A stretch of DNA of 64,000 nt from Candidatus Saccharimonadales bacterium. GTDB taxonomy: Bacteria > Patescibacteriota > UBA1384 > 2-12-FULL-50-11. Both the position numbers and the translations under genes were made by a program. The notes beneath the pieces are model-generated. The model worked only from the letters and a program-made list of their open reading frames with translations. It did not search any database and had not been told where the DNA came from. Below are positions 903 through 63,259 of this stretch, in pieces. How positions within the stretch are numbered: position 1 is the first letter of the stretch; the number at the start of each line of letters is the position of its first letter. The DNA is taken from assembly GCA_035480235.1 (NCBI GenBank), contig DATIHX010000011.1, positions 146-64,145 on the forward strand, in the 5' to 3' direction.

Positions 903-3308
903 TCAAGAGAGAGTGTTGATCGTTAGCACGCTGCCGGGTTTGGGATCTTCCGTAATTATCTGCTTGGCGATCGCGGTTTCCAGATCGTTTTTAATCACCC
1001 GTTCTAAGGCCCGCGCGCCGAAAACCGGGTCGTAACCTTTGAGCGCTAACTGCTGCAAAACGGCGGGTGCAATTTGCAAATCAATTCCTTTGTCTTTTTT
1101 GACTTGAGCTTGGAGAAGAGTAATTTGGAGGCCAACAACTTGGGTGATTTCGCTTGGGCTTAACGGCGCAAAAACGATCGTCCCGTCGAAGCGGTTCAAC
1201 AGCTCCGGCGAAAAAGTTTTGTCGGCGATCAATTTGTCGATTAGCGGTTTTTCGAAGCCTTCAATCGGCGTTTTATTTTCAATTTGGGTTTTGATGTAAT
1301 CGCTGCCGGCGTTACTCGTCGCGATAATAATGGCATTGGTGAAGTCCAAAACCTTACCGTAGTTAGTGGTCAAGCGGCCTTCGTCGAGCAATTGCAAAAG
1401 GACATTTTTCACCGCTGGAGCGGCCTTTTCAAACTCATCAAACAGAACCACGGCCGACGGATTCTCTTGAATCATTACCGTTAACGCCCCCGGCAGGGTG
1501 GTTGGATCGGTACCGAGCAGCTTTTGGAGGCCTGCCGCGTCGGCGTATTCGGTCATATCCAGCCGGATGAGTTTTTTATCGGAGCCAAAATAAATCGCTG
1601 CTAGGGCTTTGGCCGTTTCGGTTTTACCAACGCCGGTTGGGCCCAAAAAGAGGAACGTCCCGACCGGCCTGTTGCCGGTAGAAAGCCCAGCCCGAGCTCG
1701 CAGGAGCGCGTCGCTGACTAATTTAATCGCTCGGTTTTGGCCGATCACCCTCTTATGCAACTCCGCTTCCAAATTCAGTAACGTTTTTTGTTCCGTTGCT
1801 TTCACTTGCAGCGGCACTTGGGCTTTTTGCTCGATCGCCACTTCCACGTCTTCCGGCATGACGAGTAATTTATTGTGGGCGTGGTTGGCCGCGGCGATGG
1901 TTTCTAATAAATCCAGTTCTCGGAGAGGCGAGGCTTGATCTTTGACGTAACGGGCCGCCAGTTTAATTAATTCCGAGAGCGCTTCAATGGTGAAAAAGAC
2001 GTTGTAGCGATTCTCTAATTGGTTGAGGTGCGAAAGGAGGATCGGCAGCAAGTCGGTTTCCATGGGAGCGGAAACTTCCAAAACGCTGAACTGTTCGGCC
2101 AGCCCAGCATTCGGTTTGACGATTTTAGTGTAGTTTTCCGGCGTCATTGTTCCAATAATATGGACCCGCTGGTTTTGCAAATGGGCCGCCAAAACGTTAC
2201 TGACGTCGGCCTCACCGAGTTGGCCGCTACTTAAAAGCTGGTCGATTTGGTTAATAGACAAAATAACGTTGCCGGCTCGCGATAGCTCAGCAAATAAGGC
2301 GTCGAGAAGCTGTTGTGAGGCTGAGGAACTCGAAGCCTGGGCGAGCAACTGCTGAACATCCAGTATCCGGACCGTCGCACCGTCGAGCGCGGTTTTAGTT
2401 TGGTAAAACATTACTTTGGCGGCGAAATTCAAGAAGATTTCTTGTTTACCGCTGCCCGGTTCGCCAACGAGTAACAGATTTTGGCCGCCGCCCTTGTTGA
2501 GATTTTGGGAGATTTGATCAGCTAATTTTTGGCGGGAGAAAAGTGGCCAAATTAACGCGCGCTGCCGAACGCTTGGCGGCACAGTGGTGGTGAGCGAATC
2601 GGTAATCTGGGTGTAGCTGACCGCCCAATCTTTGCCGATGCCGCCGGTCCGGGTGGTGTGGTTCAGCCAAAAAGCTTTTTGCTGGTAGCGGAGTTGGTGC
2701 TGCGCATCGTAAAAACCGAGAACTTGGTTGAGAGTTACTTCGTCCAGTTCGTTTTCGGCTAGTAGCCGTTGGAGGACGGGTAGGCTAAAAATGATATCTA
2801 AAAATTGGTGGATAGAAATTATTTTTTTGGGTGGCGCGGCGGTGAGCAGTTGCTTGAGGGCCGCTTCAGTGAAAGGCTGGTTTTGGAGCGGTGTAAAGTG
2901 GCCTTCGCTTAAGCCGAGCCGCAGCAAGATGATTTTAGTCTCGTCAACTTGGGCAAAGGCGGTTAATAAGCCACCCAGGGTCTGGTCGCGCCACTTCGCC
3001 AACACATTTTGAGCTTCAAAATCGAGCCGGTTGAACGGGTTAGCTAATAAGCCCTCGGCGAGCATAAAGCCCGGGTGATGCCGAAGATACGAAACAAACA
3101 AATTGACCGATTCGGCGACAAACAGCGGCGCAAGTAAGAAGATCGCTATGGCTCCGACCGCACCTGTAATAGTAATAAAAGAATTAATCACCAGTAATAA
3201 TAAGCTGGCCAAGCCAAGAGTGATGAATAAATATCGAAAGATTGTAACGAAACTGCTATCCCAAAGGCGGATAAAACGTGCCCTGCCAAATTGGAAACTC
3301 TTTTTCAT
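903..3308 (-). CDS. Clp/Hsp100-family double AAA+ ATPase with an N-terminal transmembrane region; first ATPase module degenerate
   Basis: D2 has Walker A GPTGVGKTETAKALA and Walker B VVLFDEFEKA. D1 has GEPGSGKQ and ILSINQIDQL in place of GKT and DE. The N-terminus has two hydrophobic helices instead of a Clp N-domain. Start placed at MKKSFQ (ATG 3308), which overlaps the upstream stop as ATGA. Confidence 0.85.
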   Translation of the reverse strand: MKKSFQFGRARFIRLWDSSFVTIFRYLFITLGLASLLLLVINSFITITGAVGAIAIFLLAPLFVAESVNLFVSYLRHHPGFMLAEGLLANPFNRLDFEAQNVLAKWRDQTLGGLLTAFAQVDETKIILLRLGLSEGHFTPLQNQPFTEAALKQLLTAAPPKKIISIHQFLDIIFSLPVLQRLLAENELDEVTLNQVLGFYDAQHQLRYQQKAFWLNHTTRTGGIGKDWAVSYTQITDSLTTTVPPSVRQRALIWPLFSRQKLADQISQNLNKGGGQNLLLVGEPGSGKQEIFLNFAAKVMFYQTKTALDGATVRILDVQQLLAQASSSSASQQLLDALFAELSRAGNVILSINQIDQLLSSGQLGEADVSNVLAAHLQNQRVHIIGTMTPENYTKIVKPNAGLAEQFSVLEVSAPMETDLLPILLSHLNQLENRYNVFFTIEALSELIKLAARYVKDQASPLRELDLLETIAAANHAHNKLLVMPEDVEVAIEQKAQVPLQVKATEQKTLLNLEAELHKRVIGQNRAIKLVSDALLRARAGLSTGNRPVGTFLFLGPTGVGKTETAKALAAIYFGSDKKLIRLDMTEYADAAGLQKLLGTDPTTLPGALTVMIQENPSAVVLFDEFEKAAPAVKNVLLQLLDEGRLTTNYGKVLDFTNAIIIATSNAGSDYIKTQIENKTPIEGFEKPLIDKLIADKTFSPELLNRFDGTIVFAPLSPSEITQVVGLQITLLQAQVKKDKGIDLQIAPAVLQQLALKGYDPVFGARALERVIKNDLETAIAKQIITEDPKPGSVLTINTLS

Positions 3309-3676
3309 CGGGTGACGATCCAAACTGCTAATACTGGCAAAATAAAGATTAAAGCCGGCACGACGGACCACAGCACTAAACCAACACCAAGCAAAATTGT
3401 TAGGAAGGCCAAACTAATGACGGCGACAAAAATAACAATCGAGCGCAACACAATGCCGATAAAACGACTGGCCAAATTTTGCTCCCACAGTTTGACGGTG
3501 TCGCTCAAGGCGGCGTTTTGGGCTGATAAAACATCGTTTTTCCATGGCGCAAACCAACTTTTGACCAAAATTTCCAGCGAAAAAAAGTCGGCTACTTCGT
3601 ATAAAACCGCCGCTGCCACTTGCCAACTTTGCTTATAGCCCTCGCCGTACCACCAATAAAAATATCCGGTTAACAT
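3305..3676 (-). CDS. hypothetical membrane protein, translationally coupled to the Clp-like gene
   Basis: ORF track, 123 aa. C-terminal hydrophobic segments. Its stop overlaps the next start (ATGA at 3305-3308). Confidence 0.55.
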   Translation of the reverse strand: MLTGYFYWWYGEGYKQSWQVAAAVLYEVADFFSLEILVKSWFAPWKNDVLSAQNAALSDTVKLWEQNLASRFIGIVLRSIVIFVAVISLAFLTILLGVGLVLWSVVPALIFILPVLAVWIVTR

Positions 3677-3769
3677 CCCCTCTTCTGCAGTATGGCAGAA
3701 AACGAAGCCACTTTCCCTTGATTAGTTAGCTAAACTTATCTATACTACAGCTACCAAACGGAGGAAAAA

Positions 3770-4213
3770 ATGGTTCAGAATACTGCGCCTTCGCTGGACG
3801 CTCTTTATAAGGAGATCAGAGTGGCCGAAGAAAATTACAACCAACTCGTCACTACCGCCGAAGTCATTGCTCAAGCAATCACTAGAAATCTCGACGTTTT
3901 CAAACGCTGCCTGCCTACTCACTCGAACAAAACAGGGTTCCAGCAGCTTTCGTCAGATGGGGGCAATTCGTTTTACGCACCGCTTCATTCCAGAGACAGA
4001 TTGGCAGTTTACGCTGATGGGCAATTTGAGGGGGCCAAACTAAATTTTAGTTTTAGGCATGGCGTTCTACGATTAAGCTTTCTAGGTGATGAAAAGTGGT
4101 TAGGAGGTTTCATCGAGAAAGTCTATCCGTTCCTCGTCAAGCAGCTCGACGAACACAATGAGCAGCAGGCAGAGTATTTCGCAAAGCTACGACAGCTTTA
4201 TGCCGAAGCGTAG
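3770..4213 (+). CDS. hypothetical protein
   Basis: ORF track, 147 aa. Strong SD (AGGAGGAAAAAATG). No recognisable motif. Confidence 0.5.
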   Translation: MVQNTAPSLDALYKEIRVAEENYNQLVTTAEVIAQAITRNLDVFKRCLPTHSNKTGFQQLSSDGGNSFYAPLHSRDRLAVYADGQFEGAKLNFSFRHGVLRLSFLGDEKWLGGFIEKVYPFLVKQLDEHNEQQAEYFAKLRQLYAEA

Positions 4214-25139: not shown

Positions 25140-25166
25140 TTTGCACTCGTAGCTTAGCCTGGCTTA
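25140..25166 (+). pseudogene. 5' fragment of tRNA-Asp (acceptor 5' strand to D-loop)
   Basis: 27/27 nt identical to 25217-25243 (TTTGCACTCGTAGCTTAGCCTGGCTTA). Sequence diverges afterwards. Confidence 0.8.
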
Positions 25167-25219
25167 CGACGAGCAGCACAGCTGCGAGGGGCAAGCCAGG
25201 ATTTTAACAGTTTTATTTT

Positions 25220-25295
25220 GCACTCGTAGCTTAGCCTGGCTTAAAGCGCCTCCCTGTCACGGAGGAGATCGCCGGTTCGAATCCGGTCGAGTGCG
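25220..25295 (+). tRNA. tRNA-Asp (GUC)
   Basis: GCACTCGTAGCTTAGCCTGGCTTAAAGCGCCTCCCTGTCACGGAGGAGATCGCCGGTTCGAATCCGGTCGAGTGCG, with anticodon loop CTGTCAC. Confidence 0.9.
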
Positions 25296-25304
25296 CAAAG
25301 CAGG

Positions 25305-25330
25305 AATCCGCTTTCGGCGGATTTTTGTTT
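25305..25330 (+). terminator. terminator after tRNA-Asp
   Basis: AATCCGC-TTTCG-GCGGATT followed by TTTGTTTT. Confidence 0.6.
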
Positions 25331-25377
25331 TGTGCGTTGACGGTTCGAAACCGTAGGTTCGGTAACGACAAAGTGCA

Positions 25378-25414
25378 ACGGAGGAGTTTCTAGCTCTTCC
25401 GGTCGAGTGCGCCA
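25378..25414 (+). pseudogene. degenerate 3' half of tRNA-Asp ending in CCA
   Basis: ACGGAGGAG (matches 25259-25267) plus TCCGGTCGAGTGCGC (matches 25282-25296) followed by CA. The T-arm is replaced by TTTCTAGCTCT. Confidence 0.7.
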
Positions 25415-25489
25415 ATTTGACATTTTCAGCCTTTCTCGGCAGGCTGGTTATAACGGTTCGGGAAAATAACTTTCAAACAAGGAGGAATA

Positions 25490-37271: not shown

Positions 37272-39227
37272 ATGCCCACTGAATCCGGCCCACAATTCTT
37301 AAAAGAAAAGTACGACCTTCATAATGCGCCAGAGGTACAAACAGCGGCCGAGCGAACCAATCGCCGCAACGAACGAGCCGCCCAAGACGGTGAAGAGTTT
37401 GAAACTATCGGCCAAGATCCGGCCGCCCGGATTGAAAATTACCTCCGACGTTTTACAGAAATAACAAAGCGCACGGATCCGGAAAAACGCGAACGCGGCC
37501 TAGAAGCCGTCAAGCAACTAATTTTTGATAAGTTTGTCACTAAGTACGAAGACGTGCCAGAATCGTTTAAGCAATTGCAGGAAAGATTAATCCGAGAGCG
37601 CGGCGCGGGCGGCGACTGGGCCGGAGCAACAGACGAGCAAAGAGAACAAGTTATCCGGCAAAACGCCGAGGCAATGATTGACGATCAGCAGGCTTCGCTT
37701 GAACAATGGATCGACTACTTGGCCTCGGCCGATTCCAGCTATATGCCTGATTATTTAAAATACTGGACCGTTCGGAGCGTTCTCGGCCTCCAGGAATACG
37801 ATAAAGAAAATCATAAATTCCCTAACCGTTCCCGTGGCACCCTCAAGCAATTCCCCGACATTAACCAGGAGGCGCTCGTCTATGTGACCGAAGCTCTCGA
37901 AAAACATTTTAACGGCCAAAAGCCGGAGTACGAATATGACATTCAACCGGAAGATCGGACTCGATTTGAACAATTTATTGAGCACCAAAGCTTCGCCAAA
38001 ATGTATGCTTGGGCCGTTGAGCAAATTAACCCGATTTCCGAAGAACTTCTTCAAGTTACTGAAGGGCAATGGCATAAATTCGAGCAAGGCTCCGATTCAC
38101 ACGCCTTATCCGATTCAATCCGCGGCCGAAGTACCGGCTGGTGTACTGCTGGCCAAAACACTGCTAAAACGCAACTTGAAGCCGGGGACTTTTATATTTA
38201 TTACTCCAATAACGAGGAGGGCAGCCCAACTATCCCCCGCATCGCCATTCGGTTGGAAACGGGTAAGATCGCCGAAGTTCGGGGGGTAGCCTATAAACAA
38301 AACCTTGACCCTTATATGGGGCCGATACTAGAAGAAAAACTTAATGAATTTCCCGACAAGCAGCAGTATCTGAAAAAGGAACACGATATGGCCACGCTCA
38401 CCGCCCTCGAGCAGCGAGCCAAAGCAGGCGAAGAACTAACAAAAATTGATCTAGCCTTCCTTTACGAAATAGATAGCCAAATAGAAGGCTTTGGCTATCA
38501 GCGCGATCCCCGTATTAAAGAGTTGCGCGTCGGACGGAATATGGAAGCCGACATGTTAACCATCTTTGAATGCGAACCAGCCCAAATCGCCCGGAGTGTT
38601 GCAGAAATAAACGCCGAAACGAAAGCTTTTGTTGGCAAGTTGGAACCCGGCATTTTCACTAAAATTGCCGAACATCCAGCTATTGAACACCTGTACACCA
38701 ACTTCCCCGAAGGCAAAATCGCCCGCTCAGAACTAACGATCGGCGGTAAAACAGTTGACCAGCTCAAAGCCGAAATGGCAGAAAAACAAATTAATACTTC
38801 CAGTTGGGCCGAAGATATGCTGGCTAAAATGCCGGTCTTACCAAACCCTGAGCAAATCACCCTTATTCGTTTAAAAGTCGGCGATCTTGGCTTAACCGGC
38901 CAGCCAACGACCGATGAAATTTACGCCCGGGCCGCCGAATTGGGACTAGAACTCTGCCCAGCCGAAGTCGGTCCGCACCAACGCCTCAAAGACACCGAAC
39001 AGCCGTTAGGCGATTGGTATCGGGTGGCGATGAAACAAATTGCTGACCGGTTCGGCAGCCCGGACGTCTTCCGCCTGGAACGCAACGACCACGGCTTGTG
39101 GCTGAGCGACAGTATTGCCGAGCCCGACCGCAGGTGGGATCTGGACGATCAGTTTGTCTTCGGTCTTCGCAATGTTTCTCCGGACTCTCAGGCTCCTGAA
39201 CCCTTTATTCCCCAATTTGAGTTTTAG
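37272..39227 (+). CDS. DGR target protein (651 aa) with a C-terminal variable region
   Basis: ORF track. The VR occupies codons encoding ...IADRFGSPDVFRLERNDHGLWLSDSIAEPDRRWDLDDQFVFGLR, near the C-terminus as in C-type-lectin-fold DGR targets. Confidence 0.8.
   Translation: MPTESGPQFLKEKYDLHNAPEVQTAAERTNRRNERAAQDGEEFETIGQDPAARIENYLRRFTEITKRTDPEKRERGLEAVKQLIFDKFVTKYEDVPESFKQLQERLIRERGAGGDWAGATDEQREQVIRQNAEAMIDDQQASLEQWIDYLASADSSYMPDYLKYWTVRSVLGLQEYDKENHKFPNRSRGTLKQFPDINQEALVYVTEALEKHFNGQKPEYEYDIQPEDRTRFEQFIEHQSFAKMYAWAVEQINPISEELLQVTEGQWHKFEQGSDSHALSDSIRGRSTGWCTAGQNTAKTQLEAGDFYIYYSNNEEGSPTIPRIAIRLETGKIAEVRGVAYKQNLDPYMGPILEEKLNEFPDKQQYLKKEHDMATLTALEQRAKAGEELTKIDLAFLYEIDSQIEGFGYQRDPRIKELRVGRNMEADMLTIFECEPAQIARSVAEINAETKAFVGKLEPGIFTKIAEHPAIEHLYTNFPEGKIARSELTIGGKTVDQLKAEMAEKQINTSSWAEDMLAKMPVLPNPEQITLIRLKVGDLGLTGQPTTDEIYARAAELGLELCPAEVGPHQRLKDTEQPLGDWYRVAMKQIADRFGSPDVFRLERNDHGLWLSDSIAEPDRRWDLDDQFVFGLRNVSPDSQAPEPFIPQFEF
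39040..39170 (+). repeat. DGR variable repeat (VR)
   Basis: 131-nt ungapped alignment with 39581-39711. 17 mismatches, every one at an A in the TR copy. Confidence 0.9.
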
Positions 39228-39257
39228 ACACTTTGCTTCTTCGGCCCTTGGAAATTT

Positions 39258-39288
39258 TTTGCGGCGTAGCCGCTCGCCGCAAATTTTT
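39258..39288 (+). terminator. hairpin/terminator after the target gene
   Basis: TTTGCGGCG-TAGCCGCT-CGCCGCAAA followed by TTTTT. Confidence 0.55.
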
Positions 39289-39580
39289 GCTAGGCTTTAA
39301 GTAGATTGGTTGTGTCGGACGGTTAGTTTCAAACCTCACAGGGGGTGAAGCGGCTTTTCGAAACCCTTCTGGCAACTATTAATTGAGGGTGCCAACGGTT
39401 AGCTTTACTACTTTAGTTAGGCGGCTTTTGGCAGTGGTTTAATAATCTGTCTACATATGTAATAAGAGAAACTTGGTGTGGCGGGCTGGTGGATTTTGGA
39501 TCCCAAATTAGATACAGCCTGAGGCCTTTTACGAATTGGTAAATTGTCTGGGCAGTGGCCAAGATGGCGCGTCGCATAAT

Positions 39581-39711
39581 TAACTGACCGGAACGGCAAC
39601 CCGAACGTCTTCAACCTGGAACGCAACGACAACGGCTTGTGGCTGAACAACAATATTGCCAAGCCCGACAACAGGTGGAATCTGGACAATCAGTTTGTCT
39701 TCGGTCTTCGC
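39581..39711 (+). repeat. DGR template repeat (TR)
   Basis: Same orientation as the VR. AAC/AAT-rich in the VR reading frame. The 3' flank (CAGTCTTTC...) diverges from the VR flank (AATGTTTCT...) right after the shared GC-rich TTCGGTCTTCGC. Confidence 0.9.
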
Positions 39712-39735
39712 CAGTCTTTCTTTTCCGCAGCCGAC

Positions 39736-40140
39736 CTAAGGGTTGCGGTTTTTCTTGTCCGGATTATCTAGGTTTTTCCGCCAGCCACCGAGCATTTTAC
39801 CGACTTCTTCTAACTTGAGAGCAATTTCTTGATAATGATTTTGAGAAAGAATCCGGCCTTCCCAGGCCACCGCGATCAAAAATTTCAAGGCGTCCAGGCG
39901 CAAAATACAATCCGAAACTTTAGCTGGCTTTTCTTCTTTGGGGCTAAAATAGGCTAAGTAAATTTGCTCTAATAAGTCGAGGAGATTATTCTCGACTCGA
40001 GTTCCTAGCGTATACCGGCTATTCTTAGGAAGATGGGCCGAAATTTTCACCCAGAGCAGATAGCCCTCTTTGATCCGGTTGACGACCGACGCATTATCGA
40101 GAGAGAGAGAGAGAGAGAGAGAGTTGGACGGCTTCGGCAT
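39736..40140 (-). CDS. avd: four-helix-bundle (Avd-like / 23S rRNA IVS-protein family) accessory protein, encoded opposite to TR and RT
   Basis: ORF track, 134 aa. ...HLPKNSRYTLGTRVENNLLDLLEQIYLAYF...LDALKFLIAVAWEGRILSQNHYQEIALKLEEVGKMLGGWRKNL matches the pattern of this family. Residues 7-14 (SLSLSLSL) are encoded by the (GA)12 tract. Confidence 0.75.
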   Translation of the reverse strand: MPKPSNSLSLSLSLDNASVVNRIKEGYLLWVKISAHLPKNSRYTLGTRVENNLLDLLEQIYLAYFSPKEEKPAKVSDCILRLDALKFLIAVAWEGRILSQNHYQEIALKLEEVGKMLGGWRKNLDNPDKKNRNP

Positions 40141-41127
40141 AGTTTTAACGACATTATATCATTCCCGAACTTACTGGCCGCTTGGTCAGAGTTTTTGACC
40201 AATAAGCGGCGCAGAAAAGACCTCACGGCGTTTTCGCTTCATTTGACCGATAATCTTGTTGGGCTTCAACGTGACTTAGCGGGAAAAATTTATCGACACG
40301 GGACGTATCAGCCGTTTAAAATCAGCGACCCGAAACCGAGAGATATTCACAAAGCGATTGTTCGTGATCGCCTGGTTCATCACGCTATCTATCGAATATT
40401 GTACCCGTATTTTGACCGCCAGTTTATTTTTGATTCGTACTCTTGCCGGTTAAATAAAGGAACCCATCGAGCCATCAACCGTTTTCGAGAATTTGATTAC
40501 AAAGTTTCCCGTAATCAGACCCAAACCACTTGGGTTTTAAAGTGTGACATCCGGAAATTTTTTGCCAGCGTCGACCATAACGTTTTGAAAGAAGTTTTAG
40601 CCAAGCATATTGGCGACGAGGCAACGCTTTGGCTTTTGGCGGCAGTGATAGACAGTTTCTCAAACGACGGTAAGACCAACACGGGTTTGCCGCTGGGCAA
40701 TTTAACCAGCCAGCTTTTGGTTAACGTCTATATGAATGAATGCGACCAATTTGTTAAACGTGTTCTGAAGGTAAAGTATTACATCCGCTACGCTGATGAT
40801 TTTGTTGTCTTATCGGAGGACCGAGAGTATTTGGAAAAGGCTCTGGTGTCGATGGGCGATTTCTTAGTCGCAAAATTAAAACTCCAGCTTCATCCCGATA
40901 AAGTTTATATTAAAGCGCTGGCATCCGGCGTTGATTTCTTGGGCTGGGTTCACTTTTCTGACCACCGGGTGTTGCGCCAGACTACCAAACGGCGGATGTA
41001 CGGCCGGATGGCGGCTAGCCAAAAAGAGGAAACATATCAATCTTACCGCGGACTTTTAAGCCATGGTAATAGCTGGAAAACTAAACAACAATTGAGAAAT
41101 ATTTTTAATGAAGGACCCAGTGAATAA
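40033..41127 (+). CDS. DGR-type reverse transcriptase
   Basis: SFPNLLAAWSEF N-terminal block, KPRDIHKAIVRDRLVHHAI, SYSCRLNKGTHRA, LPLGNLTSQLLVNVYM and YIRYADDFVVL. The only canonical start upstream of the conserved N-terminus is ATG 40033, so the 5' 108 nt overlap avd antisense. Confidence 0.85.
   Translation: MGRNFHPEQIALFDPVDDRRIIERERERERVGRLRHSFNDIISFPNLLAAWSEFLTNKRRRKDLTAFSLHLTDNLVGLQRDLAGKIYRHGTYQPFKISDPKPRDIHKAIVRDRLVHHAIYRILYPYFDRQFIFDSYSCRLNKGTHRAINRFREFDYKVSRNQTQTTWVLKCDIRKFFASVDHNVLKEVLAKHIGDEATLWLLAAVIDSFSNDGKTNTGLPLGNLTSQLLVNVYMNECDQFVKRVLKVKYYIRYADDFVVLSEDREYLEKALVSMGDFLVAKLKLQLHPDKVYIKALASGVDFLGWVHFSDHRVLRQTTKRRMYGRMAASQKEETYQSYRGLLSHGNSWKTKQQLRNIFNEGPSE
40099..40123. repeat. 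(GA)12G dinucleotide microsatellite
   Basis: GAGAGAGAGAGAGAGAGAGAGAGAG counted directly. It reads SLSLSLSL in avd (minus strand) and ERERERER in the RT ORF (plus strand). Confidence 0.95.
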
Positions 41128-41170: not shown

Positions 41171-41377
41171 ATGCTAACCAAAGACGATCTCAAGGCTATT
41201 GGCCAACTAGTCGAATTCCAAACCGCTCCGATTGTTAAATCAATTGAAGGCTTGAAAAATGATGTAGGCGACCTTAAAACTGATGTTGTTGGCTTGAAAA
41301 CTGATGTAGGAGACCTTAAAAGTGATGTTTTTGGCTTGAAAACTGATATGAAAACGGTCAAAAAGGACGTCAAATAG
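41171..41377 (+). CDS. coiled-coil heptad-repeat protein ending at an in-frame TAG inside the repeat array
   Basis: MLTKDDLKAIGQLVE... followed by (G/D)LK(T/N)DV(G/V) units. The repeat and the open frame continue after the TAG to 41497. Confidence 0.45.
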   Translation: MLTKDDLKAIGQLVEFQTAPIVKSIEGLKNDVGDLKTDVVGLKTDVGDLKSDVFGLKTDMKTVKKDVK

Positions 41378-45066: not shown

Positions 45067-45080
45067 GTGCGCCGGGCTGG
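45067..45080 (-). pseudogene. 3'-end fragment resembling tRNA-Arg(UCG)
   Basis: GTGCGCCGGGCTGG versus GTGCGCCCGGCTGG at 45196-45209 (13/14). Short, so weak on its own. Confidence 0.35.
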
Positions 45081-45196
45081 GGCGTCACTCGCTCGCGCTC
45101 GTTCACCTGGCTTCGCCAGCTACGCCAGGTCGAACCTGGTTCGAATCGCAATCAGACGAACAATAATTCCCCGAAGCGCGGGGGATTTTCATTCAG

Positions 45197-45270
45197 TGCG
45201 CCCGGCTGGATTCGAACCAGCGACCCTCTGTTCCGAAGACAGATACTCTAATCCGCTGAGCTACGGGCGC
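45197..45270 (-). tRNA. tRNA-Arg (UCG)
   Basis: GCGCCCGTAGCTCAGCGGATTAGAGTATCTGTCTTCGGAACAGAGGGTCGCTGGTTCGAATCCAGCCGGGCGCA, with anticodon loop CTTCGGA. Confidence 0.9.
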
Positions 45271-45333
45271 AAATTGTGAACGAAGCGAACAATGCGGCGA
45301 CCGGAGCAAGGGGGATAAGGATTATCAACTTGG

Positions 45334-45352
45334 TCCGCTGAGCTACGGGCGC
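45334..45352 (-). pseudogene. 5' fragment of tRNA-Arg(UCG) (acceptor strand to D-loop)
   Basis: 19/19 nt identical to 45252-45270 (GCGCCCGTAGCTCAGCGGA on the minus strand). Confidence 0.75.
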
Positions 45353-54475: not shown

Positions 54476-54500
54476 CCCCAGCCACACTGGGGATTTTTTT
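54476..54500 (+). terminator. Rho-independent terminator
   Basis: CCCCAG-CCACA-CTGGGG followed by ATTTTTTT. Confidence 0.65.
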
Positions 54501-54646
54501 AAATCATATATTGCGCAGAATAGTCCCGATCCGCTTGAGTTGGCTATAGATTTAACGAAGCCTGAAGAAGCGACGCATCGCTTCCGTTTTGGTGCCTAAT
54601 TAAACCTCCGCCATCGGATTGAAGCGTACCGGTAGGGAAAATATTT

Positions 54647-54690
54647 GTACCCCGAGTAGGGTTCGAACCTACGACCTTGACGTTAGAACC
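54647..54690 (-). pseudogene. orphan tRNA 3' half (anticodon-loop remnant, T-arm, acceptor 3' strand)
   Basis: Minus strand TTCTAACGTCAAGGTCGTAGGTTCGAACCCTACTCGGGGTACA has a canonical T-arm GTAGG-TTCGAAC-CCTAC. No adjacent 5' half. Confidence 0.65.
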
Positions 54691-54697
54691 GAATGTG

Positions 54698-54771
54698 TGC
54701 CCTGAGTTGGATTTGAACCAACAACCTAGCGGATAGAAGCCGCTTGCGCTATCCAGTTGCGCCATCAGGGC
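54698..54771 (-). tRNA. tRNA-Arg (UCU)
   Basis: GCCCTGATGGCGCAACTGGATAGCGCAAGCGGCTTCTATCCGCTAGGTTGTTGGTTCAAATCCAACTCAGGGCA, with anticodon loop CTTCTAT. Confidence 0.9.
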
Positions 54772-54834
54772 AAAGTGCTAACTACTAACCGTGCCCATAC
54801 CCCAACTTCTGTTTTACTCGCTATCGCTTGTAAA

Positions 54835-54873
54835 ATAGAAGCCGCTTGCGTTATCCAGTTGCGCCATCAGGGC
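54835..54873 (-). pseudogene. 5' half of tRNA-Arg(UCU) (position 1 to anticodon loop)
   Basis: 38/39 identical to 54733-54771. Identity stops exactly at the 3' side of the anticodon loop. Confidence 0.85.
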
Positions 54874-54887
54874 ATTATTTTATTGCT

Positions 54888-54995
54888 CCTCCCGGGGTTT
54901 CGGCGTCCTAACGAACACGCCTCAACCCGCCAAACCGACTCGAAGCAAAGCAGTTTGCTTCTCGCTGCCGGTTTTGCCCACTGAGCTACCGGGGC
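54888..54995 (-). other. tRNA-like element: tRNA 5' end (GCCCCGGTAGCTCAGTGGG) followed by two long hairpins
   Basis: The minus strand starts like a tRNA but has no D-stem partner. It is followed by AAACCG..GAAGCAAA/TTTGCTTC..CGGTTT and GGGTT..GGCGT/ACGCC..AACCC hairpins, then CCCCGGG. Confidence 0.4.
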
Positions 54996-55058
54996 GATAC
55001 ACCGAATTCTACCGCAAAAGCGGTTGCTAATCCAGCCCGATCCTATATATTTTAGCTG

Positions 55059-55625
55059 ATGTTGACTCGCCAGGAAGCCTATAAAATTCTCACCAACCAC
55101 GTGGAGAGCCAAAGTTTGCGGCGGCACTGTTTGGCAGTCGAAGCGGCGATGCGCTCATTAGCCAGCTATTTCCACGAAGACGAAGAGAACTGGGGCATCG
55201 CCGGCTTGCTGCACGACGCCGACTGGGAGGAAACGCGCGACACGCCGGAAAACCACGCGGTGAAGGTGGCCGAGTGGTTGGAAGACTGGGACTTGGGCGA
55301 CGAAGGCATTAAAACCGCAATTTTAGCCCACAACCATTTCCATAACGGCCACGAACCGCCACAGACGCTGTTTGAGTGGGCGCTCTATTGCTGCGACGAG
55401 CTAACCGGCCTGATTGTGGCCTGCGCGCTGGTTCAGCCAAACAAAAACCTGGAAACTGTCACCGCCGATTCGGTCCTGAAAAAATTCCAGCAAAACGCCT
55501 TCGCCGCCAACATCGACCGAACTAAAATCCGCCAATGCGAGGAGCAGCTCGGCCTGAAGTTGGACGAGTTTATGGCGCTGGTGCTAGGCGGCATGCAAGA
55601 AATTTCTGCCGAACTCGGTTTGTAG
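55059..55625 (+). CDS. HD-domain phosphohydrolase
   Basis: LRRHCLAVEAAMRSLA and GLLHDADWE (H...HD) motifs. Confidence 0.8.
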   Translation: MLTRQEAYKILTNHVESQSLRRHCLAVEAAMRSLASYFHEDEENWGIAGLLHDADWEETRDTPENHAVKVAEWLEDWDLGDEGIKTAILAHNHFHNGHEPPQTLFEWALYCCDELTGLIVACALVQPNKNLETVTADSVLKKFQQNAFAANIDRTKIRQCEEQLGLKLDEFMALVLGGMQEISAELGL

Positions 55626-62874: not shown

Positions 62875-63259
62875 GGGGCTGTCTTGGCTTCGACGGGAAC
62901 ATTGACACCTACATTGGCAAGCGGAAATCTCTGCCTTAGAGGATAAAATTATACGTGCAAACGCTATAAATAAAGTAAAAGCTCTAGCCGCGAACTTGTT
63001 CGCTGCTCCTGCTTTTGCGCCAGTCTACGCCTAAACCGTGTTAGACCGTCTTGAATCTTGACCCTACTAGATTTTCAAGGCGTCAAATTAGTGGGTAAGC
63101 CAGTTGTTGGCACCAACAATTAGTCGAAAATTTAGTGCTGCTTTTACCGGTATTTTGACTGTTTCAAGCCTGTAAATTAAGAAATTAATCAGCCTAAGCT
63201 TGTAGAAGATGTAGATCGTCGGTTTTCGGACCCGGGTTCAATTCCCGGCAGCTCCACCA
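62875..63259 (+). ncRNA. ssrA: tmRNA
   Basis: 5' GGGGCTG...TTCGACGGG and 3' GGACCCGGGTTCAATTCCCGGCAGCTCCACCA (tRNA-Ala-like end). Candidate tag frame GCA 62957 to TAA 63034: ANAINKVKALAANLFAAPAFAPVYA. Confidence 0.9.

Follow-up and report, generated by a model that had tools for sequence, protein, structure and literature searches.

Within a 64-kb chromosome segment of a metagenome-assembled genome (MAG) of Saccharimonadales (Patescibacteria), referred to here as the window, a gene for tRNA-Arg(UCU) is surrounded by pieces of tRNA genes and by a structured element of 86 nt that we call E. The tRNA locus occupies the whole of a 590-nt intergenic gap, with a 182-aa open reading frame (ORF) on one side and an HD-domain gene on the other. 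The short ORFs in this gap overlap the tRNA pieces and E, and none of them is a credible coding gene. All items of the locus are read on the minus strand, and related loci used for comparison carry an L number. In the direction of reading, the locus consists of the following parts.

54978-54995, minus strand: 5' piece of the native tRNA-Arg(UCU), positions 1-19 (GCCCCGGTAGCTCAGTGG; 18/18 against the syntenic tRNA of L005)
54892-54977, minus strand: element E, 86 nt, two hairpins, ending in CCCCGG (match to the covariance model R1, described below, at 54979-54892, 49.4 bits, E-value 7e-7)
54884-54891, minus strand: junction nucleotides GAG, then GAGCA, corresponding to native positions 22-26 (3' strand of the D-stem and A26)
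54874-54883, minus strand: filler ATAAAATAAT, left edge of the second insertion, without counterpart in the native or the inner tRNA
54835-54873, minus strand: truncated 5' half-copy of the inner tRNA-Arg(UCU), positions 1-39 (38/39 identical, BLAST E-value 3.8e-15 within the window)
54772-54834, minus strand: 63-nt spacer, the first 30 nt of which (54834-54805) are identical (30/30) to one L006 spacer
54698-54771, minus strand: intact inner tRNA-Arg(UCU) (ARAGORN tRNA-Arg(tct); Rfam tRNA, 66.8 bits, full model)
54692-54697, minus strand: filler CACATT, right edge of the second insertion, between the inner discriminator base and native position 30
54646-54691, minus strand: 3' piece of the native tRNA-Arg(UCU), positions 30-73 plus CA (anticodon loop GTTCTAA, variable loop, T-arm, 3' strand of the acceptor)

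Native and inner tRNA-Arg(UCU) genes

The first-pass annotation of this DNA had described four items at the locus, namely a segment that begins like a tRNA and runs into two long hairpins, a 39-nt 5' half, the intact tRNA-Arg(UCU) and an orphan 3' half. All four are present on the minus strand where it had placed them, far above chance. The tRNA-like start covers 54995-54978 and the two-hairpin segment after it ends with the CCCCGG at 54892; the 39-nt copy (54873-54835) has the identity given above, and both ARAGORN and Rfam recognise the intact gene (54771-54697/8). The 5' piece spans the 5' strand of the acceptor, U8 and A9, the 5' strand of the D-stem and the D-loop as far as G18G19, and the GAGCA at 54888-54884 agrees with L005 (..ATTA GAGCA GGACG..) in 5/5 positions. 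The orphan 3' half had been correctly recognised by its perfect T-arm, GTAGG TTCGAAC CCTAC (54672-54656), followed by TCGGGGT-A-CA, but it starts further upstream than had been assumed, at 54691, which is native position 30. It includes the anticodon loop GTTCTAA and is therefore itself Arg(UCU). When the window was scanned for perfect T-arms, a single one was found outside the annotated tRNA and tmRNA genes, that of the 3' piece, against 0.135 expected in shuffled sequences.

Relatives of the locus were located via the HD protein. In each of L005, L001 and L002, one intact tRNA-Arg(tct) immediately precedes the HD gene, at the matching spot and in the matching orientation, and in L001 and L002 a terminator hairpin comes after it. 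The full gene order of L005 (TypA, DEAD helicase, LysM/CHAP, 189-aa ORF, tRNA, HD, GT2) is shared with the window. Its tRNA differs from the window over native positions 30-73 (54691-54648) by two substitutions in the tRNA body, and the 3' piece is 89.7% identical to L005 over 58 nt. Completed with 7 nt from L005 (ATTA and GGA), the window pieces gave a rebuilt native tRNA that ARAGORN identified as tRNA-Arg(tct) and that agrees with L005 at 73/75 positions; joined without this filler, they gave no ARAGORN tRNA. Because the pieces plus 7 nt rebuild a valid tRNA, the tRNA-like start and the orphan 3' half are the two ends of one native Arg(UCU) gene, and the pairing of the 3' piece with GCCCCGG that the first-pass annotation had pointed out is correct. 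As to the G:U pairs in it, G1:U72 is already found in the intact L005 orthologue, and the second G:U stems from a C66>T change in the window relic. L005 represents the empty orthologous site, with neither E nor the cassette, and the window and L006 carry both. A TAnAAT box about 10 nt upstream of the native gene, read by eye, is conserved in the window (55011-55006), L005, L001 and L002; a simple promoter and terminator scan of the minus strand of the locus gave no matches. With an intact gene at the syntenic spot in three relatives, outer pieces that match it and a different intact tRNA between them, the nested disruption proposed initially is borne out. Judged from sequence comparison, we regard it as settled that the locus holds what reads as a broken native gene at its ancestral place beside the HD gene and downstream of what was its own promoter region, with an apparently working replacement inside.

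Native positions 26 and 30, in the anticodon stem, enclose the second insertion of about 190 nt, which comprises, in this order, ATAAAATAAT, the 39-nt half-copy, the 63-nt spacer, the intact inner tRNA and CACATT. With the native type the inner tRNA shares 66-70% identity, the differences being spread along its whole length, as against 96% with the gene at the same locus of L006, relative to which it has one compensated acceptor pair (5:68). It has a full cloverleaf with a UCU anticodon (ARAGORN, Rfam full model) and, by inspection, a D-loop AACTGGATA that puts an A after G18G19, and is presumably a working tRNA-Arg(UCU) gene. A G22>A change disrupts one D-stem pair of the half-copy, whose anticodon-loop end pairs with the first 30 nt of the spacer (CTTCTATTTTAC/GTAAAACAGAAG), a hairpin present in the computed folds. 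Phage tRNA-Arg genes match the inner tRNA at 83-85% over 54 nt; this is uninformative about a phage origin, the native type matching more phage records (523 vs 26). Searches of viral contigs for the exact inner tRNA or the core of E gave no match.

L006 has the locus in expanded form, a half-copy with E in its D-loop being followed by two more half-copies and by an intact inner-type tRNA, with two alternating spacers between the half-copies. After the intact tRNA come a second, inverted E and a 14-nt copy of the tRNA 3' end. The inverted E pair brackets the array (L006 3255-3890, minus strand), its arms (3262-3329 and 3754-3821) being 76% complementary. Recombination scars had been named among the possible origins of the fragments; this description fits the 5' half-copy, of which L006 has three in tandem.

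Over the interval that runs from the HD gene across the native 5' piece and E into the beginning of the half-copy, two other assemblies of the same organism, L003 and L004, are 100% identical to the window, and in L003 the identity runs on through the spacer, so that the left part of the locus has been assembled independently. The L003 and L004 contigs both stop inside the repeat. Short-read assemblies are broken by the repeat at this locus, and the join across the inner tRNA is known from the window's own assembly alone.

Fold, copies and target of element E

E folds into a 9-bp stem, P1, around hairpin A (core GAGAAGCAAACTGCTTTGCTTC, with tandem G.A), followed by hairpin B, which is closed by GGG/CCC. 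The copy in the window and that at the same locus of L006 are 92% identical. What had at first been described as a tRNA-like structured element is no separate tRNA-like RNA but the first 18 nt of the native tRNA joined to an insertion element that has a conserved fold of its own. Rfam 15, searched at the gathering score in the window and 14 related loci, returned tRNA and tmRNA only. At E-values up to 10, over 54500-55100, it gave no credible match in 54888-54995, the interval for which the first-pass annotation had suggested this check; the match to a known RNA family that it had named as a refutation was thus not found. E is undescribed in the databases searched, and we found nothing in the literature on E or on nested tRNA genes in Patescibacteria, the nearest work being that on group I introns in the anticodon loops of their tRNA genes (PMC13011429).

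The covariance model R1 was built from four clean copies of E, which were aligned and given a hand-written structure. A search of metagenome contigs with the 22-nt core of hairpin A led to 16 loci, and R1 gave 27 matches at an E-value < 1e-3 in 15 loci (14 from metagenomes and L006) in addition to the window copy, recovering also copies without the exact core. A single contig may hold as many as six copies, and several contigs break off within one; in the window, R1 found no further copy beyond the one described. Sense matches reach 110 bits and antisense matches about 15 bits, and because of this gap the calls of orientation are reliable. Among 30 distinct copies, whose alignment was fitted to the model, which inflates pairing, 91.4% of the cells were paired, compared with 68.6% in shuffles, and both sides had changed in 29/32 pairs. 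These values were reached by 0/500 shuffles, and slid partners gave 28-44%. The invariance of hairpin A comes in part from the retrieval of loci by the exact 22-mer. E is thus a multi-copy family with a conserved, covarying fold.

In the window, E lies after the G18G19 of the D-loop, between G19 and position 22 of the native gene. Most copies have AGT(T)GG directly upstream, within a tRNA 5' fragment. The tRNA copies that bear E are of the following types.

Arg(UCU), native type: window
Arg(UCU), inner type: L006
Arg(GCG): L013
Ser(GCU): L016, L013 and L007
Ser(CGA): L021
Val(GAC): L017 and L022
Thr(GGU): L020

In L022 the intact Val1 reads CAGTTGG/TTAGAGC and the adjacent Val2 CAGTTGG/E/TTAGAGC, which by sequence is a clean insertion exactly between G19 and U20. 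Other copies likewise precede the rest of the D-arm, and what follows E varies by case. Look-alike sites outside D-loops are position 10 of tRNA-Ser (after GGAGAGTTGG), a site inside another module and a site inside another E, after ACGGG; the inverted E of L006 adjoins CCGAGTTGG on the opposite strand. All tRNA copies in which E was seen are truncated or redundant, and each has an intact tRNA of its own identity next to it. E has internal hairpins rather than terminal inverted repeats. That E recurs as a structured insertion of specific orientation at a D-loop motif of tRNAs we consider settled.

Further arrangements were observed around E. Long non-coding arrays of tRNA-Ser-derived units, about 1 kb without an ORF, are found in L013 (5290-6260, minus strand) and L012 (2950-3930, plus strand), each unit consisting of GGAGAGTTGG, E, a second conserved hairpin module and CCAACTCTCCA, with E nested in E; several contigs end within tRNA-Ser-derived repeats of this kind. 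Downstream of tRNA-Pro, L018 (1990-2300, plus strand) carries tandem 3' pieces, GTCGGGGG TT/insert/AGAGT CCCCC TAGCCCGA, which are T-arms with E or small hairpins in the T-loop.

Nested tRNA genes at other loci and further features of the window

The first-pass annotation had also noted fragments beside tRNA-Asp and tRNA-Arg(UCG) and had thought them too frequent for chance. This was confirmed, 5' and 3' copies being found at both loci.

25143-25415, plus strand: tRNA-Asp locus, with the ancestral 5' end at 25143-25166 and the ancestral 3' end plus CCA at 25398-25415
45067-45352, minus strand: tRNA-Arg(UCG) locus, with a 5' copy of positions 1-19, the intact gene at 45270-45196 and a 3' piece at 45120-45067

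At the Asp locus the 5' end of the tRNA is copied at 25143-25166 (24/24) and its 3' end at 25398-25412 (15/15). The 231 nt between them (25167-25397) contain a complete tRNA-Asp (25220-25296) and, besides it, one hairpin and a second that resembles a terminator. L024 has a single intact tRNA-Asp plus CCA, and its flanks (tttggaattt upstream, CCAATTTGACAT..TTTCTCGGCA downstream) are those of the outer fragments in the window. Because L024 is intact with identical flanks, 25167-25397 is to be read as an insertion with a whole tRNA-Asp, and here too a native gene was split by an insertion carrying the full tRNA. The outer 3' end keeps its encoded CCA, and the inner tRNA-Asp is without one. In the fold of 25332-25415 the old 3' end takes part in a closed stem (25297-25415 has z -4.5). 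The 5' arrangement recurs in L023, from the genome of L006. In the Asp leader a stem is formed by the D-loop fragment and a downstream arm, and L023 has a compensated T>C change in it; the outer fragments follow the allele of the inner tRNA genome by genome.

The 5' copy at the tRNA-Arg(UCG) locus (45352-45334) is identical at 19/19 positions and the 3' copy (45080-45067) at 13/14. In the 3' piece, the T-stem strand GCTGG is followed by a 35-nt insert that replaces the T-loop, then by CCAGC and the acceptor strand. A neighbouring protein used to look for a comparator matched only itself in the database. On the sequence of the window the locus looks the same as the nested Asp and Arg(UCU) loci, and it has no comparator genome. 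Additional GGTTCGA-like bits occur at about 45150-45125. The Asp and Arg(UCG) loci have smaller hairpin inserts other than E.

Nesting is seen in other genomes as well. In L013, an outer Arg(GCG) 5' fragment (GCGCCCA..) with E is followed by an intact inner gene (GUGCCCA...UGGGCAC) and by an orphan 3' half that starts from the anticodon loop and ends in UGGGCGC. The outer pieces match each other with C2:G71, and the inner gene is compensated, with U2:A71. The tRNA-Thr of L020 has the same nested layout as L013, and L022 has three different tRNA-Val versions. An outer tRNA-Thr relic at 380-520 of L020 (minus strand) has a hairpin of about 40 nt in place of the anticodon, between CAACTCCAT and CAAGGAGT, which suggests a further class of inserts that targets the anticodon loop.

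The rest of the window was surveyed for its genes and other features. Its housekeeping genes include UvrA, ClpB, TypA, ThrRS and SHMT, and one of its proteins is identical to an entry annotated "MAG TPA Candidatus Saccharimonadales". The 30 ORFs surveyed in the window comprise housekeeping genes and the reverse transcriptase of a diversity-generating retroelement (DGR), with no integrase or transposase among them. The DGR lies at 37272-41127 (plus strand), with the reverse transcriptase at 40033-41127 (Pfam RVT_1, 79 bits), the template repeat at 39584-39711 and the variable repeat at 39043-39170, located at the 3' end of a 651-aa ORF (37272-39227). Over the 128-nt repeat, 15/15 mismatches are adenines in the template copy. 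No link of this reverse transcriptase to the tRNA loci was found. Just downstream of it, 41244-41348 (plus strand) has a 21-nt tandem periodicity, with four overlapping 42-nt copies that are 67-88% identical to the reference copy. A tmRNA gene at 62875-63259 (plus strand; Rfam 150 bits) has an unusually long predicted tag, ANAINKVKALAANLFAAPAFAPVYA, and together with nine tRNA genes it makes this a very dense RNA-gene region for 64 kb.

Origin and meaning of the nested loci

We favour, with a probability of about 0.6, the reading that the locus is a broken native tRNA-Arg(UCU) gene with E and a segment carrying its replacement, that E is mobile and non-autonomous, and that the replacement came about by recombination or insertion. 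The native pieces and the half-copy would then probably be without a decoding role, the inner gene supplying tRNA-Arg(UCU). E may be a small non-autonomous mobile DNA element that prefers to insert directly after ..AGT(T)GG, and its restriction to redundant or already broken copies would be due to the lethality, in small genomes, of a hit in a single-copy working tRNA gene. The replacement gene could arrive by recombination or by insertion of a foreign or duplicated tRNA cassette, and dispensable copies might also come from site-specific recombination in the anticodon loop and the T-loop. Arrays of half-copies may expand through tandem duplication, or else through recombination at the anticodon loop. 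The native promoter probably drives transcription of the whole stretch, and ordinary 5' and 3' processing would release the inner tRNA from this transcript.

Several points weigh against this reading. No clear target-site duplication accompanies E, the most being a GG repeat (..TTGG/E..AGG/), and the retrieved flanks of the copies showed no gene for a transposase, an integrase or another recombinase. Since no recombinase was found near the copies, it is their distribution that argues for mobility. A candidate autonomous element between inverted E copies was rejected, the pair in L019 flanking only a gene for a ComF-like phosphoribosyltransferase. Moreover, several E units are closed by a stem between the tRNA 5' fragment and a downstream complement, one such pairing being compensated between genomes, and these closing stems have the look of a structure under selection, in RNA or in a single strand, and not of simple decay. 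For pseudogenes the native relics are also unusually well kept (18/18, 5/5 and 44/46) compared with the flanking genes, which have 72-80% DNA identity to L005; this preservation points to a recent event or else to constraint on the pieces. The fitted alignment and the retrieval by the exact 22-mer, given above with the fold, tell in the same direction, as do the compensated pairing of the Asp leader and the outer fragments that follow the inner allele.

As a mobile element, E resembles miniature inverted-repeat transposable elements (MITEs), REPINs, the IS200/IS605-derived PATEs and the Rickettsia palindromic elements in being about 90 nt long, non-coding, hairpin-rich and multi-copy in small genomes, with nested copies. 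Like MITE-type elements it is present or absent at orthologous sites and has a short preferred target and a fixed orientation; copy number with conserved structure and a defined target with an empty site, two features used to recognise such elements, were both found. A preferred short target, a fixed orientation and no obvious target duplication are also known from IS200/IS605-type elements. Among the differences, no sequence relation of E to any of these families was demonstrated and no partner transposase was identified, E targets a conserved tRNA D-loop motif and thereby marks tRNA gene copies specifically, and its fold covaries like that of a functional RNA.

This last property is at the centre of an explanation that we consider possible but rather unlikely, namely that the tRNA pieces with E have a function as leader or satellite RNAs on a tRNA scaffold, which are transcribed together with the working tRNA from the strong promoter of the latter and excised by RNase P and 3' processing. 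In such RNAs E would serve as an active module, for instance one that binds a protein, and the tRNA 5' fragment would persist for the sake of a closing or acceptor-like stem. The compensatory changes that keep the fold, the invariant sequence of hairpin A and the promoter-like box retained upstream of the native gene agree with it, and so do, among the points just raised against the favoured reading, the well-kept relics, the Asp leader pairing and the alleles of the outer fragments, to which are added the L013 units upstream of tRNA-Ser, closed by a perfect 10-bp stem (GGAGAGTTGG/CCAACTCTCC) followed by A. It is at odds, however, with the inverted E relative to the tRNA array of L006 and the occurrence of E in both orientations at other loci, with E nested in E and E at look-alike sites outside tRNAs, and with close relatives that have no E at the same locus. 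In addition, the E unit of the window lacks a matching closing strand nearby, and the sequence after E differs from case to case. The anticodon loop and the T-loop are the classical crossover sublocations of integrases in tRNA genes, and the loci might be scars of attachment (att) sites, left by tyrosine integrase elements whose bodies have since been deleted nearly completely. The breakpoints do lie in loops: the 5' half-copy ends at 38/39, the orphan 3' halves of the window, L013 and L022 begin at 30-33, the 5' and 3' pieces overlap on the 7-nt anticodon loop, and the Asp and Arg(UCG) 3' fragments begin at the edge of the T-loop or T-stem. In this the locus is like tRNA att sites, as it is in having, next to an intact tRNA, an orphan 3' half that starts at the anticodon loop. 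Yet the 590-nt gap between conserved syntenic genes has neither an integrase nor any other element gene or body, the inner tRNA is unlike the native one in both halves and hence no hybrid of native gene and element, and E at the D-loop and the 5' duplications are left unexplained; bodies of 6-63 nt would require repeated near-complete deletions at three loci. We consider such scars improbable as the origin of the locus.

A simple history of tRNA gene duplication in tandem and later decay by deletion, in which no mobile element takes part, would account for the three [5' half + spacer] units of L006, the two near-identical units of L020, the second, nearly full tandem tRNA-Val copy in L017 and L022, and the upstream flank that is duplicated too in L007 and L016. 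As a complete explanation it is contradicted, and we judge it very improbable: the same structured sequence of about 88 nt occurs at one D-loop position in at least 5 tRNA species of different lineages, the inner and outer Arg(UCU) are merely 66% identical, and the window spacers are not copies of the upstream flank. It probably does contribute to the growth of arrays. A split or intron-containing tRNA whose parts are joined at the RNA level, through a bulge-helix-bulge or a group I intron, is hardly credible, and the same is true of an assembly artefact. The outer 5' and 3' acceptor strands are complementary, group I introns are common in tRNA genes of Patescibacteria (PMC13011429) and short-read contigs break within the locus, all of which speaks for one or other of these possibilities. 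The split or tRNA-half arrangement suggested at first fails, however, in that native positions 20-21 and 27-29 are missing, that the joined pieces are not a tRNA and that an intact gene with the same anticodon lies inside. Rfam at E-values up to 10 gave no group I, ribozyme or intron match, and the ends of E are not paired with each other, the 5' end pairing inside P1 and the 3' end closing hairpin B, so that no bulge-helix-bulge is formed; none was seen at the E junctions by inspection, without a dedicated search for this motif. An artefact is opposed by the identical native 5' piece, E and half-copy in two other assemblies and by the homologous layouts of L006 and L013.

In Archaea, split, multi-intron and permuted tRNA genes are processed at bulge-helix-bulge motifs (PMC3218864, PMC4033280). 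The window gene is like these in being interrupted at non-canonical places, including the D-loop, and in its matching outer acceptor strands, but it differs in belonging to a bacterium, in having no bulge-helix-bulge, incomplete exons and an intact gene inside, and in that its pieces are relics. The group I introns of Patescibacteria are self-splicing ribozymes of 200+ nt that interrupt otherwise complete genes in the anticodon loop, from 33/34 to 36/37, and they too show that tRNA genes of this group are often interrupted by structured RNA missed by standard annotation (PMC13011429). Unlike them, E has 86-88 nt, lies in the D-loop, has no group I core according to Rfam and occurs in broken or redundant copies, and the native exons are 7 nt short.

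The favoured reading, a native gene broken and replaced in place, matters for the organism in several ways. In the tiny genomes of Patescibacteria each tRNA is usually encoded by one gene. Repeated breakage, nesting and replacement of essential tRNA genes would turn over part of the core translation machinery in a way that was not expected, and E would be a structured element homing to a universal D-loop motif, for which the model R1 provides a defined RNA/DNA motif. Nested loci explain breaks in short-read assemblies, and annotation of tRNA genes may report the wrong copy or miss the relics. More tentatively, and with less likelihood than the contrary, E and the smaller hairpin inserts of D-, anticodon and T-loops may be unrecognised loop-targeting mobile elements or tRNA-scaffolded RNAs of Patescibacteria. 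They might drive a continual breakage and replacement of single-copy tRNA genes, with small, protein-free replacement-tRNA cassettes spreading between lineages and becoming indispensable after destroying the resident gene.

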